A stretch of 63,636 nucleotides of DNA, counting the filler, from Rhabdomonas costata (lineage: Eukaryota): assembly GCA_019059605.1 (NCBI GenBank). It is 17 parts of 17 records of this genome, joined end to end, with 100 filler letters (N's around TTAATTAATTAA, not from the genome) between each part and the next. Parts side by side here need not be neighbours in the genome. Positions count along the whole stretch, not along the records: positions 33,745 to 37,390 come from JAHMHO010000642.1; 16 more parts are not named here. One strand, written 5' to 3'. The number at the start of each line of letters is the position of its first letter. Positions within the stretch are counted from its first letter, which is position 1. The notes beneath the pieces are model-generated. The model was given only the letters and a program-made list of their open reading frames with translations. It was not told where the DNA came from and ran no database searches. Shown here one piece after another: positions 11,252-60,001 of the stretch. The translations under genes were made by a program, and so were the position numbers.

Positions 11252-14200
11252 AGAATCTCCTCCGCTCGGTGACTTCGCCGCGCGAACACGGGCTTCGTCT
11301 TCGTGAGCAAGCACCAATGCAACTTTCCCCCGACGCTCTTTGCACGGCATCTGACTGCTAACTTTGGGGTTCGGATTGGTGTTGCACTGCCCGTTTTAGA
11401 GCAAAAAATCGACCTGGTTTGGCATCTTGAAGCTGACGGGCAGGCTGAAGTTAATGAAGGAGAGTGCTCCCTTCTCCACCTTAACGCAAGGACCTGCGAA
11501 GTTTACTTCGAGTGCGGACATGAATGCCAGCAGCCAGATGTTGGTCATTCGGATAGCAGTTCCTCGCCTGCTGTTACCTCTCCTCGCGCGACTTCTGTGA
11601 GTCGCATTGCACTTCTTGAAAATGTTCCGATTACCTTGGATCTCGAGAAAATTACGTCAGAGAATCATCACCTCCTTTCATGTGCAATTCCTAAAGTTTC
11701 CATGCAGCTCTCGACTTTGACTTCGGCGGTATTGGCGGGAACCTTCAAAGATATGCAACAGGAGTTTGAATCTGCTATGAGCTCCTCTCCTTCTGGTGAA
11801 TTTGCGTCGTCTGTCGTTGAGCGTTCTACATTGCTGAGCGCACCTACCCTCAACCTCATGGTTCAGGTGAAAGGTTTTGGGTTGACCTTCACTAGTGATG
11901 CCGGAGACAAGAAGTATCCATTGTTCGTTTTTCACGGCACGGGAACTCTTCAGCACACGAAAGCTGATGGCCAGTTTCACGCTCACTTGGAGTCTTTCTG
12001 GTGCGACTATTACAGCCCCTGCATTCACAGTTGGGAGCCTTTCCTTGAAAAAGCGAGCGCACACCTTGAAATTCAGAGCAAATCTCTCCCTACCGAGCTG
12101 CACACCGAATGTAAGCTGCGAGCCTCCCTTTTGAACTTCAACGTGACACCCGCCCTAGCGGGTGCCCTGCTCGAGGCATATTGTTTGTGGCATGAGATGC
12201 GGGTGGTCCCCAGTACCGCGTTGCTGCGCGCTGAGGAATTCTTTCTCTTTCATCTGGTCAATCACGCAGGCGCTCCTCTGCTCTTTCGGTGCGAACCTAT
12301 GGGGAGGGTAACAGTGGCACCCTCCAGCACGGCGCGGTTCCGCGTTCAAGGGAGAATAGACACCATTTCGTCGAATCCGCAGCTCTTGAAGGTCCAGCTG
12401 GTTGATGGGGTCAAGGACGGTGACGGGACTCCGATCAGGGTTGATTCTGTGGGAGAGTCTATTTACTCAATACAGGGTATTCCACTCTTGGTCCGTGTTA
12501 ATTTTGGAAAGGGCTTCAAACGGATTGAAGTCACTTCGCTCGTCACGATTATGAATCACACTCCCGTTGGCCTGCTAATTGTCGATGTTGGAAAGGTTGA
12601 CGCCGATGGAGGCTCGCTGGCAATTCCCTCTGATTTTCTGGACGTAAAACCAATGGCTGTTCGTCCATTAGTCGGAGAACAAAAGTTCACTGTCGCTCAG
12701 CTTGGCCTTCGATTTGGAGATCTGCACAAAATGGGCAATGCAAGCTTTACGATGCGGTGCTCTGCAGTTTCTCCCGACACTGGATTGTTTATTTGCTTTG
12801 TCGATCTTGCCGTGAACGAGCTCCTCAATTATGTGACTGTTTCGTTCTCTCCGACCTTTTGCATTCGAAACCTCTGTGGGAGAGCGGTTGAGCTTGAGCT
12901 GTTCGAGTCCAAACGGGGCAAAGCGGGATTCTTCCGAGCAAATCAGACACTGACCGCGGTCGCAAAAGGAAGTGTGGAGCATGAGCACACCTTCAAGGTA
13001 ACGTGCGCAGAAGTTGGATGTGAGCTGTGGCTTGAGTTCAGCGTACAGCAACCAACCATGGAGAAGATCAGCATGAGGTTTGCTGAATCAGAGAGCCAAC
13101 AGGTGCTGGTGAGACCTGTCGGCAATGATAAAGAATATTTTCCAACGGATGCGTTGCTATGCGACTCCAGAAAACGCGAGCTTCGTGTGAACATTGAGCG
13201 CAGCGGCATCAGGGAAATCACGTTGTCGGTTCCTTTCTGGATCATCAACGACACGACATTTTTTGTGAGCTATTCGGACAAGCTGACCAATCGCCGGACC
13301 CTGACTGCCGGGCAGGTGCTGGGGCAGAAGGTCGATAAACCAGATGGAACTCGTGATGGAGGCGATTGCCCAAGCCGGCAGCAGAGTCAATCGGGCATAG
13401 TTCCTAAGTGTCTCACACCTTTTCTTGTGAGCACTGGTACCCAGTTTGGATTTTCGTTGGACTTGGAGCAGTCAGCCCACTTCATGGTTGGTGACGGGGT
13501 GAGTTGGTCGAATTCTGTCAGTATTTCTAGACTAAGCACTCACTCGTTTGTGGAATGTGGCCTGAAAGATGGGACGGGGTACCGTTGCGCTGGCGTCTCT
13601 GTGGAGCTGCCACCGGGCAATGCGAAGCTTTACACAAAGGTGTTACGGCTGACCCCGAGATGGTTATTTCTCAACCGAACTTCGGAGCTTTTGGGTGTTC
13701 GACTCATTTCTCGAGGCTGTGCCGACTTAGTTGTTGAAGTAGCTCCATCCGAGCCCCTTCCTTGTCATTGTGGGAGGGCTTTGGGAAACAGTATTTCTTT
13801 GATTTGTTCAAGGCGGCACCGAGGACGATGGTCGAAGCCTATCATGGTTGACTCGGAAACAGATGTGACTGTTAATCTTTCTTATGTGGGAGATCCAGCT
13901 TCCCTGGCAGCAAAGAAGGAGTCAGTCGGTTTTGCTAATGAGCAACCATCAGAACCATTTGCCCTGGTCATTGTCCGAGTTCGCGTTAGTATGAGAGCCG
14001 GTGTCGCGTTTTTGACACTCGATAGCGTCTCTAAGCCGCCTTACTCTATTCAGAACAGGCTCGGCTTCGAAGTTCAAGTGCAACAACAAGGGATGCCCTT
14101 TGCTTATCCCATCAATCCACGATCAACTGTGGGTTATGCGTGGGATGATCCCGAAGGAGACCTTACTCTTCTAATTCACGTTGAAACCGAAACTTTCCCT

Positions 14201-14316
14201 GCCGTCCTGGACCCAAAACTTCTCAGCCACCCAGATGAAGGGCCATCGACGACTTCGAGTCATAGCTCTTTTCTTCAGAGTGCCACCATCAAAGTTGGCG
14301 GGTCGGTACCATGTGG
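11252..14316 (+). CDS. VPS13: VPS13-family bridge-like lipid transfer protein, large internal exon covering the VAB/SHR-binding repeats
   Basis: More than 1000 uninterrupted codons with WEPFLE, PFWIINDT, TKVLRLTPRWLFLNRT, PPYSIQNR and YAWDDP motifs. Probable donor GTAAGT near 14316. Confidence 0.88.
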
Positions 14317-15796
14317 TAAGTGGGGGTCCGGGACGGGCAAGGGTACAATGTGGGTAGGTTTTTGGTTTTTGCGGAAATCCAACAAGAGTTGCGCAAAACC
14401 GCGAAGCATTGGCAGCTGCAAACGATCAAACAAAAGACAACAAGGATAGGGCACAGAAGCGCAAAACGTGGAAGGACGATGTACACAAACAAAACTCGAC
14501 AAGAAAACACGTGGCGAGGAAAGAGACTTTTACAGGTGGAGCGCCCGATTGAAGACTCGGCGCAACAGCATCGAAAGAAAAGGAGAAAGCCCTTGGGAGG
14601 GATTTGACTGGCGGTGCTGCACAGCAAAGTGGACAGTTCCTTGGGGACAAATGCGGTCGCTTATGAATGGAACTGGCGCTGGAGTGGATGTTTTGCTCTG
14701 ATGACTGATTATATTGACCAGAAGATGGGCATACCGCACCGTGATCGCCATCTTTAACTTTCAGCAGGGAAAAGAGCGAATCTCCGGCACCACTGTTAAA
14801 GCGGTTGACATGCCACTGCCTCCTTCCAAAAAGAGTTCCCAACATTCCGGCACCGTGTGTGTGCAGAGCAGGTCTGGCCACGACATGGCGAAAAAAACCC
14901 NNNNNNNNNNNNNNNNNNNNNNNNNNNNNNNNNNNNNNNNNNNNTTAATTAATTAANNNNNNNNNNNNNNNNNNNNNNNNNNNNNNNNNNNNNNNNNNNN
15001 TGTGTTGGTGTGTACATAGAAAAAAGCAAACGAGATTGCAACGGAGAGCGTTGCAACATGGGGAAAACGGGCTTCTTGCTCTTCTGTGGCAATAAAAAGC
15101 TGAGAACGGCTTGCAAGCACCAAAGCAAGTACAGAGGAGAAAGTGTTCCGAAAGAAATCTGAGGTCTGGGTTCGCTCAGACTAGCTTCCCATTATCTCAA
15201 TAGGATGTCGTTTTTAGCAGCGGATACAGGAGGGCCCTGTGGACACGCACAGAGAGAGAAATATGGGAGGGCATTAAGGAACCAACGCGGTGCGGAAGCC
15301 CCGAAACCATACAATACACGTACCCTGATTTCGCATCAAACCGGCTGGCCGGTCCATTTCAGTGACCGAAACTCCGCAGGGAAAGGTATATGGCTGCATG
15401 TGTCCAGCAAGGCCAACGTGAGAAGCAGTTTAGCAGATAGAATTCATATAAACCATAAACCATCTTCTTGCGGATAGGTGACCCGCAACACTTCATCAAA
15501 AGACGTCACTTACTTTCAACTATGCCGGTAGCTGCAGACCTTGATGCCACAGACCACCAATATGCCATGGATCCTCGGGACACTGAGGCAGTACCGCGGC
15601 CAATGCAATGCAAAGACTCAAAACAAAAAGATTCGATCCGCGCAATCCCGGAAGTGACTATAATAAAAACTCTCAAAAGGGCAAAGCCGAAGCAAGCCCG
15701 GGGTCTTTTGCACGTACAGTGGCCTCGTTCCTTGCCGCCTGTTGCCCACCGAAATAAAAGGGTTCATGCTGCGTTGCTCCGCGTCCTTGCCACCAC

Positions 15797-19900: not shown

Positions 19901-22900
19901 TGTTTAGCTTGCGAATGAAGGGGTTTACCGAAATTGTGAAGTTACCGAAAAGATGGTTTGTTTGGTGTTGCTCAGTGAGTTGAAGAGGGGCTTGTTTGGA
20001 ACTGTTCTGATGATAACTTCGTGGTTTTTGGAGAGAGGGAAAGAAGAGTGGTGAACTAGTGTCTGGGTCTTTGGGGGGTGTTCGTTATATGTTATGCCGC
20101 TTCGCACTTCGAGTATTGTTCGCTGTGTCTTTTTTTTTTTCGGAAACTTATGTTTTCGTATGGTTCGCTTTGGCCTTCAGGGCGGGTTCGCGTGTGTGCT
20201 GTGTTGGAGTTTTTGTTTGAAAGTCCATGGCGAAAACGTACATTGTCACGTTTCATGAGAACCCATTTCCAGCTTGCTAGCATATTTCCTTCCGTTAAAC
20301 GCGACGACTTCACCAGAGTTACGTGTTTGTTTGGTTATCCGAAACCTGTGATTGGATGTTTCTTCTCTAAATCCTGTGTGTGTCCTGAAGCCGTGGCCAT
20401 CTCGGTTGGCCCTCTCCATTTGCTTCCTTGTTATGGACGGTTGTTTTCCGGGTGGTCAAACAGGGACCAAACGAACGAACGAACGAACGCTGCGTTCGAG
20501 CATCATGTCATCAGTCTGCCAGTCTGCCGGCGCTCCGCGTAGTCCCTTCCGGCATTTATGCCAATGACCGCTTTTGAATGAGGCTTTGGATGGTATGAAA
20601 AAAATTGCCGTGTCGTGGCGCTTAACTTGCCGTTATCGATGGGCCCAAATGGATGACCAAATTGTCTTCCCCAAAAATCCAAAAGGTGCTAAACCAGAAG
20701 CGTCCACCAACGCCCTTCCTTGGGCACCGCATGATGGAGGCAGGTGGCCCCCGCCGTCGTGTAGGATCCTTCCGGGGCCCGCATTTACGGTAGATGCCCG
20801 GAACACGGTTCTGTCATTCTAGATCTTCAGCGGGCCATTTTGGTAATTAGGGGTTCGGATTCAGATGTGAGTGTGGTAAGTTGTGGTTTTGAAAATGTTT
20901 TGTAAATGTGTTAATGTCTGGTGTTGTTCGATTTTTATTTTATATATCTTCATAGTTTGTGTGTTCTTTCTTCCTGCCCCCAACCCCCCCTCATCAGCTA
21001 ATGCGTTGCGTTGTTCGCACCCCAAGGCCACCATTTTCTCAACCGACCTTGGATTGCCCTTGTTTGCAACCAACATCTGGCTTTGTTTGCGAACACCACC
21101 ACGATGATGCAAGGAAAAGCCNNNNNNNNNNNNNNNNNNNNNNNNNNNNNNNNNNNNNNNNNNNNNNNNNNNNNNNNNNNNNNNNNNNNNNNNNNNNNNN
21201 NNNNNNNNNTTTCTTCCTGCCCCCAACCCCCCCTAATCAGCTAATGCGTTGCGTAGTTCGCACCCCAAGGCCACCATTTTCTCAACCGACCTTGGATTGC
21301 CCTTGTTTGCAACCAACATCTGGCTTTGTTTGCGAACACCACCACGATGATGCAAGGAAAAGCCTTACCGTGACAGCCGGGACGCGACAACGTCATCTTT
21401 CTTCTTACACAGGAAGGGCGGCATCGACGCAGGAGATGACACGACGACCAAGAGCGTGTTCGATAAAAGGTGGGGGAGAGTAACCGTATGTGTTGGGGCG
21501 CAGCGAACCATCACATTCAGGTAATGTCACGACGACCTCATCTTCCACTTTACCGGTCGGCCCTTCTTCGTCGGACCTCCCCTCTTATAGCCACCCTTTA
21601 ACTCAGGGAGCCATCACCCAGCGGGACTCTCTCTCTCTCACTCTAACTCTCTCACTCTCTCTCAATTCACCCTAATCATTGCCTTCTGAGTGATGAAGTG
21701 ATGCTATACCTTGCCGCTGATGCGGTCATTTTGGTGGTACTGCGCGGGTACTGACACACGGGTTATGGTTGACACTGTACCACGACCACCAACGTTACCA
21801 TTACCAACATCAAGGTCTAGCACTGAATTCGTACACCACTACTAATAGGGTAACACACCCTACGTTGATGACATACAGGCATGCGTCCTACCTCGAAGCC
21901 AAGGGATATGGTGGTGCATTTGTGTTATGTGTAAGGTCCGTACGTGGAGGGTGTCCACAAGCTGTTCGGTAAGTCCTCGCAGCAAGGAACCACCACACCC
22001 ACAACACCAGCAACAGAGACAGCAACATGCACCAACACAGCACTAGCATCAACCATCACACTCCGACACACGAAACCATCCACCCCAACCGCAACAAACA
22101 CACCCTGAGAGCCAAGAACGCAGGAACAATTAACGTGCACTACAGAAGCACTAACAACGGAAGCATCGACACCACTACCCACCAACTGCAACACACCATC
22201 CAACCCAAGCACATCAACAGAGTCATTAACAAACGTAGCATCGACACAACACGCAACAAGCAATACAACAACGAGAGCACGAACAACAGAAGCAAGAACA
22301 CAGGACACAGAAGCGTCATGGTTAACGGACACAGAACCTGAGAGCATGGTAGACCGACACAGTGAGCATGGTTGAGACCAACACCAACAGGGACACCAAC
22401 ACCCNNNNNNNNNNNNNNNNNNNNNNNNNNNNNNNNNNNNNNNNNNNNTTAATTAATTAANNNNNNNNNNNNNNNNNNNNNNNNNNNNNNNNNNNNNNNN
22501 NNNNGTGTTGGGTGTGGTTGGGTTTTGGGTTGCTAGGACAGAAATCAAGGGTGGCGGGTGTATTCCCGTCTGTGACTCGCTGCCCTACCGCGTCCTGTCT
22601 GCCTCATCAGTTGCTTCCGAGTGTTGGCGTCGGTGGCGGCTTCCAGAAATACTCTGATGTCCTGGGGTGAACCGGCGACACCAACGCCGAGCCTTGAGTG
22701 AGTGAGGAATCCTTTATTTCGGCTCTGTATTAATGTCTGTACTCCCCTTTCCCAGTCTTGTTTCCAGTATGATGAACCCGCTTCTATCACATTTAACACT
22801 GTCGCTCCCCAAGCCTTGTTTGATAGTACGTTTGCATGGCCACGTTGTTGAATTTCCTGTCAGGTAGCTTCTGCGTTACTGCAACACCCTTGAACACTGA

Positions 22901-33407: not shown

Positions 33408-33744
33408 CTGTGAACGAGATGCCATTCCCAACAGCGTTTTTGATTCGAATAGCAACCAAAACACCAGCGTATCTCGCGAAAGCAAGTCACGCGAGATTTG
33501 CAAAAAAAAAAACTGCACATGCAACCCCTCCTCACCCCGAGTAGATTTCCTGCATCCGCCTCAACATAAGTATCGCCCTCTGTTCTCTGAACCCGTGCGA
33601 AAAGCTTACGCACAATTGGAATCCCAACTGAAGCCCAACAAAACNNNNNNNNNNNNNNNNNNNNNNNNNNNNNNNNNNNNNNNNNNNNTTAATTAATTAA
33701 NNNNNNNNNNNNNNNNNNNNNNNNNNNNNNNNNNNNNNNNNNNN

Positions 33745-34993
33745 TCGGCGTTGTCGGCCGTGGGGGTGGTAACAGCGACGGTGGCGGCGGTGGCGGCGGC
33801 GAGGTGAGCGCCTGCACTGCGTCGGCGGTGCTTAAGGGGACGAACCACTCGCTGCAGTCGTACAGCGGCACCCCTAGCGTCCTTCGGCTTCCCTTTTGCC
33901 GCCTCTGAAATCAAATGGACAGGCAGCAGAACACAAGGAAAGAGTGCAAAAAGGATGATGTACGCAGCATTCTCCCTGGAGGAGGACGGTGTGTGTGTGT
34001 GTGTGTGTGCATTTTTTGCAGGAAAAAGGTCACAGGCGATTGAACCTGGCACAGTTTACACAACCTCTGCTTCAAAAATGACCTGTCCGAGGGGAAACTT
34101 GTAAAGACACAAAAAAGCCACCCAACCCCTGTCTTGAGCATCAAGACTCACCTCTGCCGAAGCGGTGGTGGCGGCCGCTGTGAGGATGTTTTCCGCAGCA
34201 GTGAAGTGCACCTGAAGATGCCACCACGCATCAGCATCGAGGGTGAGGTGCGGTGGGGACTGACCTGAATTTCCACAATAGCTTGGAAGTCATTGGGAAG
34301 AACAAGAACAAGAACTTAGTGAACAATTGAACAATTTAACGTTGCTAACCCATGTCCTCATTAACCCATACCCCCCCTCCCAGACAAACTCCCGGTCTCA
34401 GCCTCCCACTCCGTGCCCCTAAACCAAACCTTTCCCACTCGTCCAAATTAGAAAAATACTTAGGAAAGGCAGGAAAGGCCGTGCCCGAGTTTTGTGCCAA
34501 CGGTAAACCCTTTATCACATATAGTGGTTTTGGGGGGTTAGCTACAACGTGGTTACCCCCACCCCTCCCTTACTTGGCACCATCAGATTCCCGTAGGTTC
34601 CTTCCTTCCGCCCGGTGGGGTACCCGACCCCACCCAAAAAACCTGGTGGGGTTGTGAACGCTTGGCAACATCCGCTTCAGCCCATGGACTGCATGGAATC
34701 AACCGTGGCCAGCGCCCTTTACGTTTCTACGTTTCGCCTAGACACAGGCGATAATACCACAAATACAACTCCTGGGAGGGTCTTTGGCAAAAGACAAGCC
34801 AAAAAGAGCCAGGGTTTGGGCAGGGCGACGACAAAGGGCCCTTTGGCAATACCTCCGTGGGGGTCGTCATCCGCAGCTTCACCTTCAGCCCAGCAGGGAG
34901 GCCGCGCGCAGCTTCAGTCACCCTCTCGGTCTTCCATTGGAATGCCAGCTCCTCCAGGGAATCGGCGAGGGCCTCTTCTTCTCCGTTCATGGC
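33745..34993 (-). CDS. Unknown protein, copy A of an inverted paralog pair; exons 34993-34853, 34211-34152, 33904-33745 (3'-partial); possible upstream exon ending at 35280
   Basis: AMNGEEEALADSLEELAFQWKTERVTEAARGLPAGLKVKLRMTTPTE / VHFTAAENILTAAATTASAE / RRQKGSRRTLGVPLYDCSEWFVPLSTADAVQAL followed by a Pro-rich tract. All junctions are phase-0 GT-AG and conserved in copy B. Confidence 0.8.
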
Positions 34994-35243
34994 CTGCGAA
35001 GGGACCCCATCACACAAGTGGCCTCAGGCAACGGTGGCTGCGTTGCAAACGCACTGTTTTGACGAGCTTGCCCGCGCACTGCGTTCCGCGGTGGATGTGA
35101 AATGGCGTATGGTATTTGCGAGTGGCAGTGACTGCTGCGGTATCGGCGGTGCTTGCAGTGTCAAGTGAACTACTAGCGAATGACCAATGAGGATCAGATT
35201 TTTCTGACGTACTGCACTAGCTATTCACCTGAATGCTTCCAAA

Positions 35244-35348
35244 CACCCATTCAATTATCCGGACGAAGCTGCAGCCAACCTGGGCCTGCAGCTGGCACAG
35301 CTGCAGGCCCAGGTTGGCTGCTGCTTCGTCCGGATAGTTGAATGGGTG
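35244..35348. repeat. Near-perfect palindrome: 51-bp arms, 3-nt loop (GCA 35295-35297), 2 mismatches
   Basis: 35244-35294 is the reverse complement of 35298-35348 except at two positions. An outer pair ttcacctgaatg (35224) / cattcaggtgaa (35360) extends it. Confidence 0.97.
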
Positions 35349-35615
35349 AACGACAAGTTCATTCAGGTGAACGACAAGTACCAATCCGTTATAGAAATCT
35401 GGTCGTTGGTTGTTTGCTTGTGACGTGTCCTGTTTAAGGTGGTATAGCGTCTGACAGAAGAACGATGGAAAAAAAACTTTGGCACCCGCTCGCACGCATG
35501 GCAAGCTCAACCCTGCAAGCTCAACCCTGCAGACTGTTTGTCCCTGGATAGCTATGGCAGACTACAAAAGGATACTCATCATGGTTGGGACATCCCCATG
35601 ACTACATTGCCGCAG

Positions 35616-37390
35616 GCCGTGAACGGAGAAGAAGAGGCCCTCGCCGACTCCTTGGAGGAGCTGGCCTTCCAGTGGAAGGCCGAGAGAGTAACGGAGGCCG
35701 CGCGATGCCTTCCTGCTGGGCTGAAAGTGAAGCTCCGGATGACGACCCCCACTGAGGTATTGCCGAAGGGCCCATTGTTCTCGCCAAACTCCTTGCTCAC
35801 TGGCATGGCTTTACCAAGGCCCTTACAGAAATCTCTTTTTGGGGGGTTTCGCTATGTTCCTGGACCGTGTAGTTGGCCACCACCATCAGCCAGCTCTTTG
35901 CCCGCTTTAGCCGGGATTGGGATGGGGTTAATCCACGGAACCATAGGAACTTTGGGGTGCCTCGGGGAGTTACTTTATTATTGCACAGCGTGGTCTAATT
36001 TATATAAATTCCTCCCTCCTTCTTTTAGAAGCGGTCGCCGCGTGGGTTGCAGAAAACGTCGCCCCCAGGGTCCAGAGAACCTCGGTTTTCCACTCTAACA
36101 GTGCAAAGCTTGGGGGTTAAACGATAGCATTGAACGTTGAGCATTTTGGAAGGCGAGATACGAAACTGAGCCATTGCTCTGGCTTTGCGTTTCCTGGGTA
36201 TTCTTGAGCTGCTTTGGATGGTTGGAACAAAGGTTCTCTTTTTCTTTTCGGGCCTCTGACGGGAACATTGCCTAGGGGCAGCTTTTATGAGATTTCATAG
36301 CGGTGGACATCGAAGACCCCCCCCCCGTCTTAAATTGACAACCCGTTATAACGCAATCTCCCCTCCCCAAGAACTGCACTGAACCCCGTGATAGTCGGGC
36401 GTCCTTCTGGGGTGAGAGTTTGAAGTGCTCTGGGTTTAAATTTGCATTTCTATTTTGGTGTCAAATCAATGCACCCTGTCACTTCGTTCTTTTGGGCATT
36501 TTTCGATCTCTAGGTGAGGCCGACACCGTGCCATCATAAGCCTCATACGCCCCCGCGTTGTTCCTCGAGAATTCGCTTCCAAAACCTAAGTGATCCACAC
36601 ATACGCACGCGCCCCCCAACACCACCACCTCACACACAACCATGCAACCACCTTCCAACCTTTTGTCTCTAAGAGAAGCCATTCCACCTTCCCCAACTTC
36701 AATGTTAATGCAGGAGCGGGGCGTTGTATTTCAGGTTCGCTTCACTGCTGCGGAGGAGGTACTCGCGGCGGCTGCCACCTGTGCTGTCGAGGTGTTTTCC
36801 CCGGATTTGAATAGGGCTCCTTGTCTGGCCTTTCTGTGCATTTTGCTGAATGTGGGGCTGAGGTCGGCTGTTGTGAAGCAAAGCTGAGAAACGTGCCCAC
36901 GTGATTATGTGCAATATCTTACTGGATTGTGCTAGGCTCTGCACTTCTTGCTGGGCGCGCAGGTACATATTTGCCTTGAATATCTCTTTCTTACTCCCAC
37001 GGATTGTGCCGATGACTTCCACTCCACCTCAAACCCAAACGGGTTCCTTCACCCAACAGCACAGGTTTTTAGTCAGCGGCTTCCTGGCTCTGTGGATCTC
37101 TTTATTTGTTTGGAGACACCTCTCTGCCTCTGCTCCGCTGCGAGCTGCCGTCCTCCCTGCCTGCAGAGGGGTCCCCCAGGGTGTACAAGGGTGACACTGG
37201 GAGTGCCGCTGTACGACTGCAGCGAGTGGTTCGCCCCTCTTACCGCGGCCGACGCAGTGCAGGCGCTCTCCCCCCCACCGCCGCCACCTTCGCCACCATC
37301 GTTACTGCCACAGCCGACAACGCCGACGACACCCACCACGATGCCCTCCTCGCTGCCCGCCGCACCTGTGGTTGGGGCGCGGAGTGCCTC
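35616..37390 (+). CDS. Unknown protein, copy B of an inverted paralog pair; exons 35616-35756, 36735-36791, 37167-37390 (3'-partial); possible upstream exons 35028-35106 and 35221-35312
   Basis: AVNGEEEALADSLEELAFQWKAERVTEAARCLPAGLKVKLRMTTPTE / VRFTAAEEVLAAAATCAVE / RGPPGCTRVTLGVPLYDCSEWFAPLTAADAVQAL followed by a Pro-rich tract. Same intron positions as copy A. Confidence 0.8.
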
Positions 37391-40300
37391 NNNNNNNNNN
37401 NNNNNNNNNNNNNNNNNNNNNNNNNNNNNNNNNNTTAATTAATTAANNNNNNNNNNNNNNNNNNNNNNNNNNNNNNNNNNNNNNNNNNNNGGTTGGGGTT
37501 GGCTTAGCATGGGCTTTCCGCAAAGCACACATTTCCTGTTCAGAGAAGGCTTCAGTGCAAGGATCTTTGCCGTTTTAAACGGGACACTCGCAACAAAAAA
37601 CTTACCTTGACCTTGGATGATGCCACTGGCCCGTTGGAAATCAGGAGTAAAAACGGGGCGCCAGGGACCCAAAATTCGGAGAAAGCGGCCTTTCGTGCCC
37701 ATAACATTTGCCTGTGGGGTTCCGAGTGGAGGCGACATCAAGAGAGGGTTGAATTGTGTGCGTTGTTAGGGGGAGGGCTGTTGGTGTACCCAGCACATGC
37801 TTTCGGTCCAGGCGGATGCTGCCCGTGCGCAGGCGACGAGCCCTTCCTGGCTTTACGCCCCCGCCAGCAAGGGGAGAGGGTCGGCTGGACGCGTGCTGGA
37901 TGGGGCTTCCCCGAGACACCGAGGTCCCGGTGAGCGGGGAGCCCGACATGTCCGCGCTGGCGGTGAAGCTCGAGGAAGCTACCAGGAAAAAAAGCAGAGC
38001 CTTTTCGGCACTAACCCTCATACCAAACGGGGTGGCGGGGGGCTGCTGCAACGTTGGATGAAGCAGCAGCCGGGTTCGCTGAAACCCAACAGAGAGAAGT
38101 GCGAGATTCGGGGTGCCCAGAATCATCACCCCGGAAGTCCAAGGAACCCAGGGTATACCGCGCATTGCAGCGGGATAATTTTGTTTGGCTCGTGAATTGA
38201 ACGCTATCCGGTTGTCCACCTCCTCGGAACTGCCTCCTTTGTTGAAGGCCTTCGTCAAGCGTCAACCGAGGTCGATCCCAACTTCAGGCTGCAGGCTGCC
38301 TGAGGGTGTGTGTCAACGTCTGTATCCCCAACCAGCTGGCCACTGGTGTCCCTCCCTGTGCGCCTTATGTGGTCCTTCATCCATGGACGTTAAACCTGGG
38401 ACAATGGGCCCGTGCGGAAGGAGCCGAGGAATCATCACGGCACTGTGGTTCCTGCCAGTCGGAATGCAAGAGGCAACCCGCAAGGAATCGAATGTGCGGG
38501 TGCCCGAGTACGCTTTCTTTGACGCGTGCATGTAAGCCTGGGATGTGAGCAGGCGGTGGACCTTGGCCAATTGTGTGGGGAGCAAGCACCCCCCTACAAT
38601 AGGGTTCATCTTGCGACGCATTCAACCCTGGATCCATCCATCTTCTTTTCTCCTCGCAGTACCAGAGAAAAGCCTCTGACACGAGTGCAAGTGCAAGCAG
38701 CTTTCTTCGAAGGGGGTTTCCTTATTGGAGGGCAAAGCCGAAGCAGGCCATACAATACAACACATACAATACAACCAGTATTTTGCGGTAAGCTGGTGCA
38801 AGTGCCGGGGTTAAAATGACGGCTTCATTTGGTGTCGATACGCACTGAAAAGAAAAGGAGAAACGCGAGTAAGCAATTGAACCACCAGTTCAGCGTGACA
38901 GGTTGTCCAGAGGCAGTTTAGCCAATAAAATGCAAAGAAAAAGCCAGTGAGGTTTTTTCATAACAGAGTGAGGTGTATATCTAAACAAACAAACTCGCCA
39001 TTGCAGAAGAAACCGATGCACAAAAAAAAGCTGAGATGCATCTGCCGCGAGTCAGAGGGACAGAAAACAGCATAAGCCTTTTCTGGATGACGCGCGTACC
39101 AGACTTGAAGCTTGCCAGCTTCATCTTGCGCTTGTTCCAGTCCTCCTTCAAGTCCCTGCGTCGCAATGCAACGATTGCCGTGGTGCGTCTTTGCCGAAGA
39201 CACTCTTGCGTGTGAAGTTATCTTTCCTTTGCACCATCTCATAAAGCTCAGAATTCATGGAATTTCTTAAATTCTTCTTGGAAAGCTTTAGAAGATCTGA
39301 GTACGCTGGTTTTTACGGGGGGCGGGTGAAAACTCTTGGAATCTTGAGCTGACTGACTTCCAGTCATACCTCAAACTGCTAAGTATTGCTGTAAAGCGGA
39401 GAGTCGTTCAAAAAGCAAATAAAATAGCACTGAAGCAAGAATGGGGGACAACCTGACAGCTGAAGAACTGCTCTCCATTGTTTGGTGAACTAGCGAACAG
39501 AGAACATCGTGGTCATATCAATAGAGAACACAAAGAGTAAGTCGCAGGCCAGGCACTCCGGCACCCAGCCACATACACCCACACACTACTCAACACAAAA
39601 ATTTCAAAGAGCAGGCCTTGTTTTTTCAAATAAAAAAGAAAGTGAAGACTGTCAACCTTTTTTGCGAGTTGTCGAGTTGTATCATCGTGGGAAGCGCAGC
39701 CCATTACCATGTTTTGCATTGTTTTGCATTGAAGATGTTTTCTTGCCTTGTTATGTGAGTCAGTGCTTCCCTGTGATTTGCTTTTGCGTATTATGCAGAA
39801 TGTTCTGGGTGTTGGTTGCGCAATCAACACAAAAAGCACCACCGTTCAACCCTTTATTGACGACTTCACAGACTTGGTGAGCTCCCCTCTCCCTGGTAAT
39901 GGTGAAGTTAAAAAGACGAGGCGCTTACTGCTACCTTAGAAAAGACAATATTGACCAGAAAATGTCGATGGTGTTTACAATCAACACTTTCTGCGCAGTC
40001 TTTTGCATTGTGGATTAGGATTTTCGACCCAGCAGGTTTTGATTCTCAAAAATTGCACCAAGCATCGGATTCACATTTTTGACCAGCATTCAATAGAATA
40101 GGACTTGCCCGTTTGTGGGAGGCCTTTCATGGGGGGCTCGAAGATTCGGTGATCAGGCGGTAGGCGGAGCCCTGGGTTGGTTTGGGGTTATCCAGAGCAC
40201 GGGTTTCGGTAACCTTTGCCAAGTCCCCAGCTCACGTTCTCTTAGAAAGGAGGTTCCCAGGAGCGTAGCGGAATGATTGTCATTTCCAAGAGGAGGTTCT

Positions 40301-41235: not shown

Positions 41236-44030
41236 AACTTTGGGCCCAGATTGACCGGATTGTTGTCGTGGTTATCCCCATTGGCTTTACTATTGAGTTT
41301 GTTGAGGACCTGCTGCTGTGGACCACACCACTGTATTCATGGGCGGCGATATTGGGCTGGTGGCTTCTATGCTGGACTATTCAACCCTGGATGGTGCCCG
41401 TGAGCATCCCGTTGGGGTGCCTTGCCGCTATTCTTGCGAAGAAGAAATTAGGCCATCTGCAAGATGATCTTGTTTTTTCCTCTGAACGCATGGGCGCCGT
41501 CGCGTCCTCTGATTTGGACAAGGCTAGCACCGATTGTTTCAGTCCCACTTCCTCTCCTTCTTCCTCACCTGGTCCGACGTCTGGCCTTACTCCCAGCACT
41601 CAGAAAAAGCCTGCGCGGAAAACCACCGAGTCTCCTCTGCGTCGATCATCTTCACTCTCCATGGGACAAGCCAACGGTGAACGTTACGTCCGCTTTAGCG
41701 AACGAACTATCCCCCGTCCTGTCCGGTTGCGTGCGATGCAGAACGCCCAGAATCTGCTGAGCCTGGCCGCAGACGTGGCGGACTTTTTGTGCTGGGTCTG
41801 GGAAGTTCCTCTCAACGATGACCATACCTTGACGTATGCGGCAATCGCGTTTGCGGGTGTCCTCATTGTCTTCTCCTGGGCAGTGTATTTCCTCCCCATC
41901 AGGCTTCTCTTCAGCATCAGCCTCACGGTGGTGTTGATTGCGGGAAATTCCTCGGTGCGAGCGCTCTTCTTTCTGATGGCGTTTATGGTACAGCATGCCC
42001 GCCGGATGAGGTCACGTCAGGTTACCGCCGAGGCTCGAACTCCAGAGACCTCCGAGCCCTCCGAGGAGGACCTGCTCCGCCCCCGAGGCTCGATGAAAAG
42101 CGGTGTGTTTGTGGAGTCAGTGTACGAGATTCAGAAGTGGTGGATTGGTCGAGGGTGGTGTCATCACCAGTGGTACCCGTACAGCATGGCAGATTTTGTG
42201 GATCCGCCTGCGGGATGGCGGTGGAAAGGCCTGTGGTACGTCGAGGACAGTCGGTCCGCCAATCCCGAGGGGTGGTATTACGCGCAGGGCTTCGTGGTGG
42301 AGAACTTTCACCTGCATTGCGGGGTTGGGGACTTTGTTCGGCGACGGACGTGGATTCGCTCCCGAGTGAAGGTCAGCGGGGAGGCTCAGCCTGCGGGCAC
42401 AAGTAGCGGAAACCCCCCCTCCTTAGACAGCGGGGACGTTGGGAAGGCAGAGACGGTGGCCCCTGAAGGCTCCCAGAATGGGTCGGTTGCCTTCCCTTTG
42501 GAGTCAGCATCGGCCGATCCCCCTCCAGAAGACAGCGTTGTGGTCTGTGACCTGGTTGGGTTTTATGAGTATCAACGGTGGTGGCTAGGCCGAGGGTGGT
42601 GCCAAAATGGCTGGCAACTGTTTTGCCACCAGGCATCTCCAGACCCGCCCTCGGGGTGGCGATACAATGGTTTGCGCTGCACGGACGACGACGACAAGGA
42701 TGAGGGGTGGCGGTATTCCCGAGTCCTGAGCAGCGAGTACCACAAAGGGGCCAGGCATGGTGACTTTGTGCGCCGACGCACATGGTATCGCACTCGGATC
42801 CGTTTAATCGGCACCGCGGACCCGGAATACACCCCGCAGGATACCGAAGCTGACACGAAGGACCCCGCTGAGAAATATCCGAACGGAACGATTGTCAACA
42901 GCGATGGGTCTGTTACGGAGATTCTTGTTGGGGTACATGAGTGCCAGCGATGGTGGCCCGTATACGGATGGTTTGCAGACGGATTGAAGCCCTTTAATGA
43001 AGGGAGATCATCATATGCGCCGGAAGGATGGCGGTGGAAAGGGCTGAAGTGTTTACAAGATACGGGCGATAGCAATGACGAGGGATGGATGTATTCCCGT
43101 TCCTATGCGGCAAAGTTTCACAAGGGCTGTGGAGCAGTGAACGTCGTTCGTCGTCGTACATGGTGCCGCACCCGAGTTCCGGTTAAAAAGGAGTCACCGG
43201 AGAATGAGCCGAAGCCAGCAGAAAAGCCAGCGCGGCAAGGAGTGGAGGTGTCTTTGCAGACGTCTCCAATCAAGGTGCCGACATCTCCTCTGAAGACGCC
43301 GGAGGGCTCTCCTGGAGAGCCTCGCGTGGAGCCCGCTTATCCCGAGCAATCTTCCACTTCCCAGTCGCCCCTGCCTGAGGACACCACGTCGAAAGAGCAA
43401 ATGGTTCAGCCCTCACCCGCGAAACCCGGATCGCGTCGAAGGATGTGGCCCTTCGGCCGACGGGAAGCTTCCCACGTCACGATTCCCGCTACAACATCGT
43501 CTGTTGCCATGTGCGCTGAGTCCATTGGATCCGAGTCTAACCAACTTCCTGCGAGCCCATCCTTGCCAAGCATGATGGTTGCGGCCGAGAATGTGGCAGT
43601 GGGCAAGGAGTCGAGTCTCCAGACCCGAGTTTCCTCTCCCAAAGTGTCGATGTCTGCGGATGATGCTCCAGAAGTGAGCCGACCGCTCAGTTTTTCCTCC
43701 GATGAGTCCAGGGAAGCGGGCGTTGCAGAGCCTGAGCCGAGTCAGGTTTTTGAGATACAGCGGTGGCGATTCGGGCGAGGATGGAGTCGGCACGGGTGGG
43801 TTCCCCGGTCCTGCGCGGAGGTGACGCAGGCTGGTCCTCCTGAAGGGGAGGAGTGGGATGGGGAATGGTTCGTCTGTGTTGCAGACTCCTCGGACAAAGA
43901 TGGGTGGATGTATGGGTCCAGCGCTGCGGGCCCCTTCCATGAGGGCTGCACAAAGCCCGATCGGTGGAGGCGCCGTGCGTGGAACCGAAAGCGGCGAGCG
44001 GTTGCCTCCGCTTCAGTGTCAGTCAAGTAA
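41236..44030 (+). CDS. Pex24/Pex30-like membrane protein with four dysferlin (DysF) domains; 5'-partial terminal exon
   Basis: ORF of 920+ codons. N-terminal hydrophobic hairpins (LLLWTTPLYSW..., MQNAQN..., LPIRLLF). Four repeats of (Y/H/F)E.Q(R/K)W...GW..P.GW.W...D..D.EGW.Y......VRRR.W.R.R at ~42120-42368, 42561-42800, 42933-43178 and 43746-43997. Confidence 0.85.
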
Positions 44031-52286: not shown

Positions 52287-52689
52287 TTTGCCCCCCTCCT
52301 CCCCAGTTTCGACCACCACCGGACCGAGCACCTGTTCTGTTCTGTTCGGCCCCATTTCGTCAACCACCTCCCGGTCACTACCGCGCCGCTCTCATGCAAC
52401 ATTCCCTGCCACCCCACACACNNNNNNNNNNNNNNNNNNNNNNNNNNNNNNNNNNNNNNNNNNNNTTAATTAATTAANNNNNNNNNNNNNNNNNNNNNNN
52501 NNNNNNNNNNNNNNNNNNNNNGGTGTGGTTGAGATGTGGTATGGTATGGAAAATCTTAAAGTAACCACACACCTGCATTGAGTTCCGTTGTTCGTTTTTC
52601 ACCCAGAGGAACGCAATGCAGGTGTGTGGTTACTTTAAGATTTTCCATACCATACCACATCTCATACCATACCACAACTCATCCATTGA

Positions 52690-59200: not shown

Positions 59201-59791
59201 GGCGTTGCGTGCGTGTGAGCGCGTGTTCGCGTCGAGACGGTTACCAGTGGGAACAATCATGCACTGCTGGAGCGATCAATTACTGGTGGAGCACACGAGA
59301 ATGACACGTCTTTGGTGCCCCCCCCCCTCCCCCGCAGGCCACGTTCCCGCCTCATTATTGGTGGCTGGCCTTCCAAATTGGTGGCTTCCCGTTAAACCAA
59401 ATCTAGACACAAGATGAACACCCAGGATGCACCCGCACGTTTTGCCAGACCTTCCTTATGCATGTGAAGCCTCTTGTGAATAGCGTTAGCACTGCTTACT
59501 CACTTTTCAGTCCGTTTTCTATAACGGTGGCATTCAGGAGAACCTGTGCCCCACACAAGCTTTGTGGCTTCGAGTTAGCGTCATTTGACAACGAGGTCTC
59601 GCTGGGCATGTGTTTCCGTTACCTTTGAGGAGTTCTGGGTCCGGTTGGAGGCAAGTGTGGGTTAATTCTCGCAGGACGGGCAGAAGAACGGCCGCGGGCG
59701 CTTCACGACAGCAGCCTCGGTGTACGAAGGGGAGTGGAAGGACGACGAGATGCATGGTAGAGGCCGGCAGACCTTCGAGGATGGAAGCTGG
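56291..59791 (+). CDS. MORN-repeat protein with N-terminal EF-hand-like and coiled-coil regions, partial; exons 56291-~56377, 56765-56883, 57514-57536, 57668-57868, 58035-58275, 58920-59152, 59675-~59791
   Basis: At least 7 Y.G.(W/F/Y).....G.G MORN units. A phase-consistent GT-AG chain including a 23-nt mini-exon links the upstream exons. Confidence 0.88.
57335..57480 (+). repeat. Intronic minisatellite, ~54 bp unit, about 2.7 copies
   Basis: atgta(c/t)gggt..cctggga at ~57350, 57404 and 57457, with similar intervening sequence (aat.ga.g.tttgcag.gg.ttag). Confidence 0.8.
58580..58780 (+). repeat. Interspersed repeat copy, homologous to 50495-50640
   Basis: Same blocks as the 50495 copy. The ggccggaatgc block lies upstream here and downstream there, which suggests a tandem unit. 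Confidence 0.75.
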
Positions 59792-60001
59792 TGTGCGATT
59801 ATGATGAAGAGAGCTAAGGGCCATGGGAGGCAGGATGGTGCGCCCGCGGCCGTTCTTCTGCCCGTCCTGCGAGAATTAACCCAAACTTGCCCCCAACCAC
59901 ANNNNNNNNNNNNNNNNNNNNNNNNNNNNNNNNNNNNNNNNNNNNTTAATTAATTAANNNNNNNNNNNNNNNNNNNNNNNNNNNNNNNNNNNNNNNNNNN
60001 N

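Follow-up and report, generated by a model that had tools for sequence, protein, structure and literature searches.

A near-perfect palindrome between two mirrored gene copies in Rhabdomonas costata, with little support for a shared coding exon

Results

Gene copies

The window analysed here, a stretch of 63,636 bases from Rhabdomonas costata, includes a contig (positions 33745–37390) in which three exon pairs are mirrored about a single axis, one member of each pair on either strand and the exon order kept. This is the arrangement by which a head-to-head duplication is recognised. Judged from its sequence, the contig is an old inverted (head-to-head) duplication of one protein-coding gene, with a palindrome at the mirror axis (Table 1).

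Table 1. Features of the mirrored locus, in window coordinates
Feature	Position	Strand	Description
Exon 3, minus copy	33745–33904	−	Leaves contig end
Exon 2, minus copy	34152–34211	−	20 codons; donor GAG|GTGAGT
Exon 1, minus copy	34853–34993	−	First recognisable conserved exon; candidate start ATG 34988–34990; donor GAG|GTATTG; 88% to plus copy
Left spacer	34994–35191	none	From palindrome to minus-strand gene; unlike right spacer (z 0.1)
Left outer arm	35192–35243	none	Diverged mirror copy of 35349–35404; 36/52 aligned columns identical
Left core arm	35244–35294	none	51 nt; 49/51 complementary to 35298–35348
Centre	35295–35297	none	3 nt (GCA); mirror axis at 35296
Right core arm	35298–35348	none	51 nt; inner palindrome 35271–35321 perfect except loop
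Right outer arm	35349–35404	none	Diverged mirror copy of 35192–35243
Right spacer	35405–35597	none	From palindrome to plus-strand start codon; unlike left spacer (z 0.1)
Exon 1, plus copy	35598–35756 (conserved part 35616–35756)	+	Only contiguous in-frame ATG at 35598; donor GAG|GTATTG
Exon 2, plus copy	36735–36791	+	19 codons; donor GAG|GTGTTT
Exon 3, plus copy	37167–37390	+	Leaves contig end

Identity between the copies is 88% in exon 1, ~80% in exon 2 and ~79% in exon 3. Of the differences in exon 1, 14 are synonymous and 3 non-synonymous (pS 0.387, dS 0.54, dN 0.028, dN/dS ~0.05; NG86, comparing the 144-nt spans 34850–34993 and 35616–35759, which include 3 intron bases past the donor). These figures imply that the gene copies are old and under purifying selection. 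Alignment of intron 2 between the copies found no similarity (z 0.5). In intron 1, by contrast, the initial ~90 nt can still be aligned (35757–35850 on the plus strand with 34760–34852 on the minus strand; z 9.2, 0 of 100 shuffles as good), and this segment may be an intronic element or may serve to extend the exon by alternative splicing.

Exon-1 boundary and start codons

Similarity between the gene copies starts at CAG|GCC, at 35615|35616 on the plus strand and 34994|34993 on the minus strand. The earlier note had read these sites as acceptor-like, and the sequence bears it out. Each copy has a single in-frame ATG contiguous with the conserved exon, at 34990 (minus) and 35598 (plus). These two ATGs delimit a divergent region of 607 nt, which lies within the spacing of less than ~1 kb expected of a bidirectional promoter.

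The plus copy has GTG where the minus copy has ATG, and in the three homologues (the two copies and P0003, described below) the boundary is followed by a codon for M, V or A. ATG 34990 is therefore not conserved as a start. A codon that varies in this way could point to a splice acceptor at the boundary, preceded by another coding exon; turnover of the start codon explains it as well. In the plus copy the in-frame ATG lies six codons upstream. P0003, which is known as protein alone, reads PQA at the place matching CAG|GCC and is open for 31 codons upstream, so that PQA is coding in two of the three homologues. Use of 35616 as an acceptor would remove the only contiguous ATG of the plus copy. 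Both copies also have a short upstream ORF (35554–35601 on the plus strand, 35010–34987 on the minus strand) whose TGA overlaps the candidate start codon (ATGA).

Homologues

Searches with exon 1 returned a single homologue from outside the contig. Four proteins matched in a set of 1.84 billion representative sequences, and one of them, P0003, is a true relative: a 79-residue ORF from an assembly, with an E-value of 3e-8 to exon 1. The other three are long proteins aligned over short stretches of the query alone, and we took them as chance matches. In a set of 5.8 billion proteins we found no relative among the longer proteins and none of near length. Pattern matches in JGI metagenome contigs (596), prokaryote genome contigs (336) and viral contigs (108) yielded no confirmed case, and a Pfam search of exon 1, P0003, exon 3 and the palindrome ORF returned no family.

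P0003 also informs on the plus copy, which has the P0003 (ancestral) residue at both informative replacement sites. Because the ancestral residue is kept at both, we conclude that the plus copy is translated through exon 1.

Palindrome

The palindrome spans 105 bases, with two 51-nt arms that are 96% complementary and separated by 3 nt. Its sequence and arms are as the earlier note described them. The core arms differ at two positions only, 35255/35337 (AAT versus AAC, Asn) and 35270/35322 (GCT versus GCA, Ala), and the loop adds a further G/A mismatch at ±1 of the palindrome centre. An RNA fold of 35190–35405 reaches −143.9 kcal/mol, compared with −59.3 ± 4.7 for shuffled sequences (z −18; 0 of 200 shuffles as good), and the corresponding DNA fold has a z of −19. 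The palindrome is real and far beyond chance.

Within the 63.6-kb window, a 24-nt pattern from the core occurs solely in the two arms (expected 0.00), and a test for a fold-back transposon or MITE found no other copy of the core there. As exact DNA, the core had no match in metagenome, viral or genome contigs. Outer and core arms together form a blastn self-hit over 35192–35404 at 79%. The right outer arm contains a 21-nt tandem duplication (35345–35379), and in the right spacer (35501–35528) a 14-nt unit, GCAAGCTCAACCCT, is repeated twice.

Mirror symmetry about the axis takes the form of a step. Ungapped matches per 10 nt number 9, 10, 9, 10 and 9 over the first 50 nt from the axis, and 4, 2 and 3 over the next 30 (51–80 nt). 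With gaps allowed, the outer arms align at 69% identity, a score reached by 0 of 500 shuffles. Local alignment of the spacers beyond ±104 nt found no similarity (158 of 300 shuffles as good). Symmetry is thus 96% in the 51 nt nearest the axis, drops to 69% as far as 104 nt, and is then absent. The neutral expectation for mirror identity, taken from exon 1 as 1 − pS, is 61%. The outer arms are near this value, and therefore the special part of the locus is the inner 2 × 51 nt alone. A near-identical tract at the axis, sharply bounded and with neutrally diverged arms beyond it, is the pattern expected of homogenised arms. The distance from the axis to the exon-1 boundary is 303 nt on the left and 320 nt on the right.

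Coding potential of the palindrome

The earlier note proposed that the palindrome is a coding exon on both strands, spliced in phase 0 to the exon reading NGEEEAL..., and that a ~50-bp hairpin in the pre-mRNA hides the donor. The elements on which this proposal was built are present. Translations on both strands, with the peptide HPFNYPDEAAANLGLQL, are as given; CAG|GTTGGC follows 35312 on the plus strand and 35280 on the minus strand, in each case a phase-0 GT after CAG; and the two arm mismatches, the sole ones, are synonymous in the proposed frame. That frame is open on both strands, is the only one open through both arms, and outscores the other two in codon usage. Two synonymous and no non-synonymous differences in 17 codons fit the rates of exon 1 (binomial estimate P ~0.07 for two or fewer synonymous). 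A CAG|GCC boundary common to both copies, with PQA in P0003 and a codon for M, V or A behind it, is also in keeping with an upstream exon.

Part of this agreement is forced by symmetry. The same peptide, GT and phase appear on both strands because, in a palindrome, either arm read on the minus strand repeats its partner read on the plus strand, and the identity between strands therefore counts as one observation, not two. In that frame the probability of two synonymous mismatches is 0.062, uncorrected for the choice among three frames, and 38% of random 35-codon windows in the stretch are open. The codon score of the proposed frame, 1.73 on the plus strand and 4.30 on the minus strand, is intermediate between random open windows (−1.36 ± 4.33) and coding windows (5.09 ± 3.5). 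A coding reading of the palindrome is not beyond chance.

Moreover, the proposed exon has no start. On the plus strand its frame opens after a TGA at 35205–35207, 12 codons before HPF, and 35208–35312 contains no Met; on the minus strand the ORF runs for 114 codons (35217–35561) without any Met. Combinations of an ATG with a phase-0 GT between the genes number 13 on the plus strand and 2 on the minus strand, and none is common to both sides. With no in-frame ATG, a coding role needs a further exon inside the territory of the partner gene, on both sides. The proposed splice would itself discard ATG 35598, and no AG is found at the 5′ edge of the conserved block.

The donor also appears atypical for the gene. 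GTTGGC has T at +3, whereas the six inferred donors available for comparison, a small and unmapped sample, have A or G. Four of these are in the mirrored gene (GAG|GTATTG twice, GAG|GTGTTT and GAG|GTGAGT), where they were fixed by comparison of the copies, and two are in a MORN gene (GTGTGC).

Protein searches point the same way. No protein with the palindrome peptide was found in the 5.8-billion set, where the minus-strand peptide had no match among the longer proteins; this is weak evidence, as exon 1 itself has a single relative. The peptide is likewise absent ahead of exon 1 in P0003, again a weak point in a family nearly absent from databases. Finally, if the locus arose by fold-back, each supposed exon past the axis would mirror the downstream DNA of its own gene, and so would not be an inherited exon.

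Other contigs in the window

The window contains 33 N runs, which include 16 pairs of the form N44-TTAATTAATTAA-N44 (for example at 33645–33744 and 37391–37490). It consists of 17 contigs of ~3.65 kb, one of which is split by an 88-N gap, giving 18 N-free pieces. Because the stretch is a concatenation of contigs, adjoining pieces are not genome neighbours. The 88-N gap (21122–21209) is flanked by a 155-nt duplicate at 98.7% (20967–21121 and 21210–21364) and resembles an unmerged scaffold overlap.

Inverted repeats are found at the ends of two other contigs. One (52530–52586 and 52608–52664; 57 nt at 98%) lies 8 nt from a contig start. The other (59643–59701 and 59840–59898; 59 nt at 97%) lies 3 nt from a contig end and spans an intron–exon junction of the MORN-repeat gene. 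Either the assembly broke off at real repeats in both cases, or the reads were chimeras formed by fold-back. Elsewhere in the window, long ORFs encode MORN and ankyrin repeats and, in two intron-free ORFs on the plus strand (11273–14446, 1058 codons; 41238–44027, 930 codons), VPS13 adaptor-binding and Pex24p-like domains (Pfam). These domains mark the source as eukaryotic, and the Atlas likewise assigns two of the ORFs to eukaryotes, at no finer level. A dinoflagellate spliced-leader motif had one match with 3 mismatches in the window, compared with 1.24 expected, and so gives no evidence of such a leader.

Discussion

The palindrome is real and its setting is ordinary; the idea of a shared exon is unsupported. 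On balance, we think that the palindrome is probably the non-coding mirror axis of an old head-to-head duplication, with inner arms that were re-homogenised by template switching or conversion. The anatomy of the locus, the divergence figures and the absence of a start codon from the proposed exon are established by the sequence. The second possibility raised in the earlier note, a non-coding centre between divergent genes that start at ATG 34990 and ATG 35598, fits these observations, and no other in-frame ATG is contiguous with the conserved exon of either gene.

The history we propose would begin with an inverted duplication by fold-back at 35296, giving rise to two divergent gene copies. 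Purifying selection would then have kept the exons, while neutral DNA drifted past alignability. To either side of the axis, 51 bases would have been equalised again, once fairly recently or repeatedly, as DNA beside the axis folded back during replication and one arm was copied from the other, by template switching or short-tract conversion. Homogenisation of this kind would account for the 96% identity. Set against a pS of 0.39, the two differences in 51 nt would place the last such event at ~1/10 of the age of the duplication. Template switching is described in the abstracts of PMC8604942 and PMC8794818 as homogenising the arms of inverted repeats, and as creating or repairing perfect stems in one event. 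The core would not be transcribed; lying mid-way in the 607-nt divergent intergenic region, it may have a role for both promoters. Some results count against a homogenised axis, in that silent mismatches and a best codon score are also expected from a coding exon. In addition, the same step in conservation would be expected if a functional DNA or RNA element were under selection.

Such selection could have acted on the core as DNA, as a shared bidirectional promoter or enhancer site, or as a cruciform. The core is central between the divergent start codons and far better conserved than its flanks. Both genes are under purifying selection and must therefore be expressed, and PMC13100816 outlines how inverted repeats in promoters expand by template switching. 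However, 105 bp far exceeds a factor binding site, and homogenisation alone accounts for a sharp symmetric step with no function needed. We consider a selected DNA element unlikely.

Next in order, and also unlikely in our view, is a palindrome that is transcribed without coding, either as a 5′ leader exon (or an outron) common to the two genes or as a stand-alone long hairpin RNA that feeds small RNAs or regulates both copies. Whichever strand is folded, the hairpin is extremely stable. Outward-facing, donor-like CAG|GT sites are present at 35312|35313 and in the conserved 12-mer CATTCAGGTGAA (35358–35369, mirrored at 35225–35236), and acceptor-like CAG|GCC precedes both exons. An E-value search of Rfam gave matches to hairpin-type families (miRNA precursors) alone, on both strands, but these fall far under the gathering scores (best 67 versus 197 bits, another 53.7 versus 100), and at gathering level the palindrome had no Rfam match. 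In a 5′ leader, a hairpin this stable would block scanning, and such splicing would leave the plus copy without an AUG before the conserved residues. The outer 12-mer, with its donor-like CAG|GTGAA, was considered as the true end of a leader exon and dropped: a 12-base conserved run in a 69%-identical stretch is not significant (estimate ~0.15).

Behind these we place an artefact of assembly or library preparation, which we regard as improbable. Two paralogous loci, or orthologues from a mixed sample, would have been fused, one of them inverted, at a palindrome that is real but shorter, through a de Bruijn path or a fold-back chimeric read. The assembly is highly fragmented, with short contigs, and 2 of the other 16 contigs in the window have near-perfect inverted repeats at an end. 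Inverted chimeras are reported to predominate in displacement-amplified DNA, as outlined in PMC1855051. The inner 51 nt is a perfect palindrome save for the loop, so that its k-mers are common to both strands, which also counts for an artefact. Against this, the flanks are 88% identical in exon 1 and unalignable in the spacers and intron 2, which excludes a simple fold-back of one locus. A join of two loci would have to hit exactly homologous positions of two paralogues, each with a real palindrome of ~35–51 nt. Nor are the arms identical: the core has two mismatches, and in the outer arms 31% of sites differ.

More improbable again is the specific case in which the palindrome is transcribed outward on both strands as a shared first exon or leader, with its own donor held in a ~50-bp hairpin stem and the two transcripts mutually complementary. 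If true, both copies would have their expression coupled or switched by one element, or that element would supply a small-RNA pathway. Last, a coding exon shared by both strands, with no in-frame ATG, a seemingly atypical donor and an identity that follows from symmetry, is unsupported and very improbable.

If the palindrome is indeed a homogenised duplication axis, then an old inverted gene duplication can retain a long palindrome at its axis, and the inner arms of that palindrome can remain near-perfect while the remainder decays. The locus also carries a caution for annotation. Any palindrome gives the same peptide, GT and phase on both strands, and this agreement has no weight as evidence for a gene. 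The palindrome would matter more only if transcripts showed the hairpin in both mRNAs.

Several known systems resemble this locus in part. Palindromic segmental and gene duplications with arm-to-arm conversion exist, for example as sex-chromosome palindromes. These are alike in having two mirrored gene copies about one axis, with parts of the arms kept similar. The present case differs in its tiny scale (3.6 kb seen) and 3-nt spacer, and in its arms: large palindromes keep whole arms alike, whereas here the arms are old and have diverged save for the exons and the innermost 51 nt.

To our knowledge, a long perfect palindrome is no defining part of bidirectional promoters. The bidirectional promoters of head-to-head gene pairs outlined in PMC2688522 are similar in serving divergent genes, here with start codons 607 nt apart; the partners at this locus differ in being paralogues from the same duplication, known here from sequence alone. 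The shared-exon proposal would resemble natural antisense pairs in head-to-head orientation, and 5′ splice sites sequestered in hairpins, a likeness that presupposes transcription and splicing of the core. The inverted chimeras of displacement amplification (outlined in PMC1855051) share the inverted join and short loop, and fold-back repeats are present at other contig ends in the window; here, in contrast, the two flanks are diverged paralogues and not one sequence. Template-switched quasipalindromes, as presented in the abstracts of PMC8604942 and PMC8794818, are alike in combining an imperfect inverted repeat, a short loop and a near-perfect, bounded tract at the axis with divergence beyond it. 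The arms of the published cases in those abstracts are shorter than the 51-nt arms found here.
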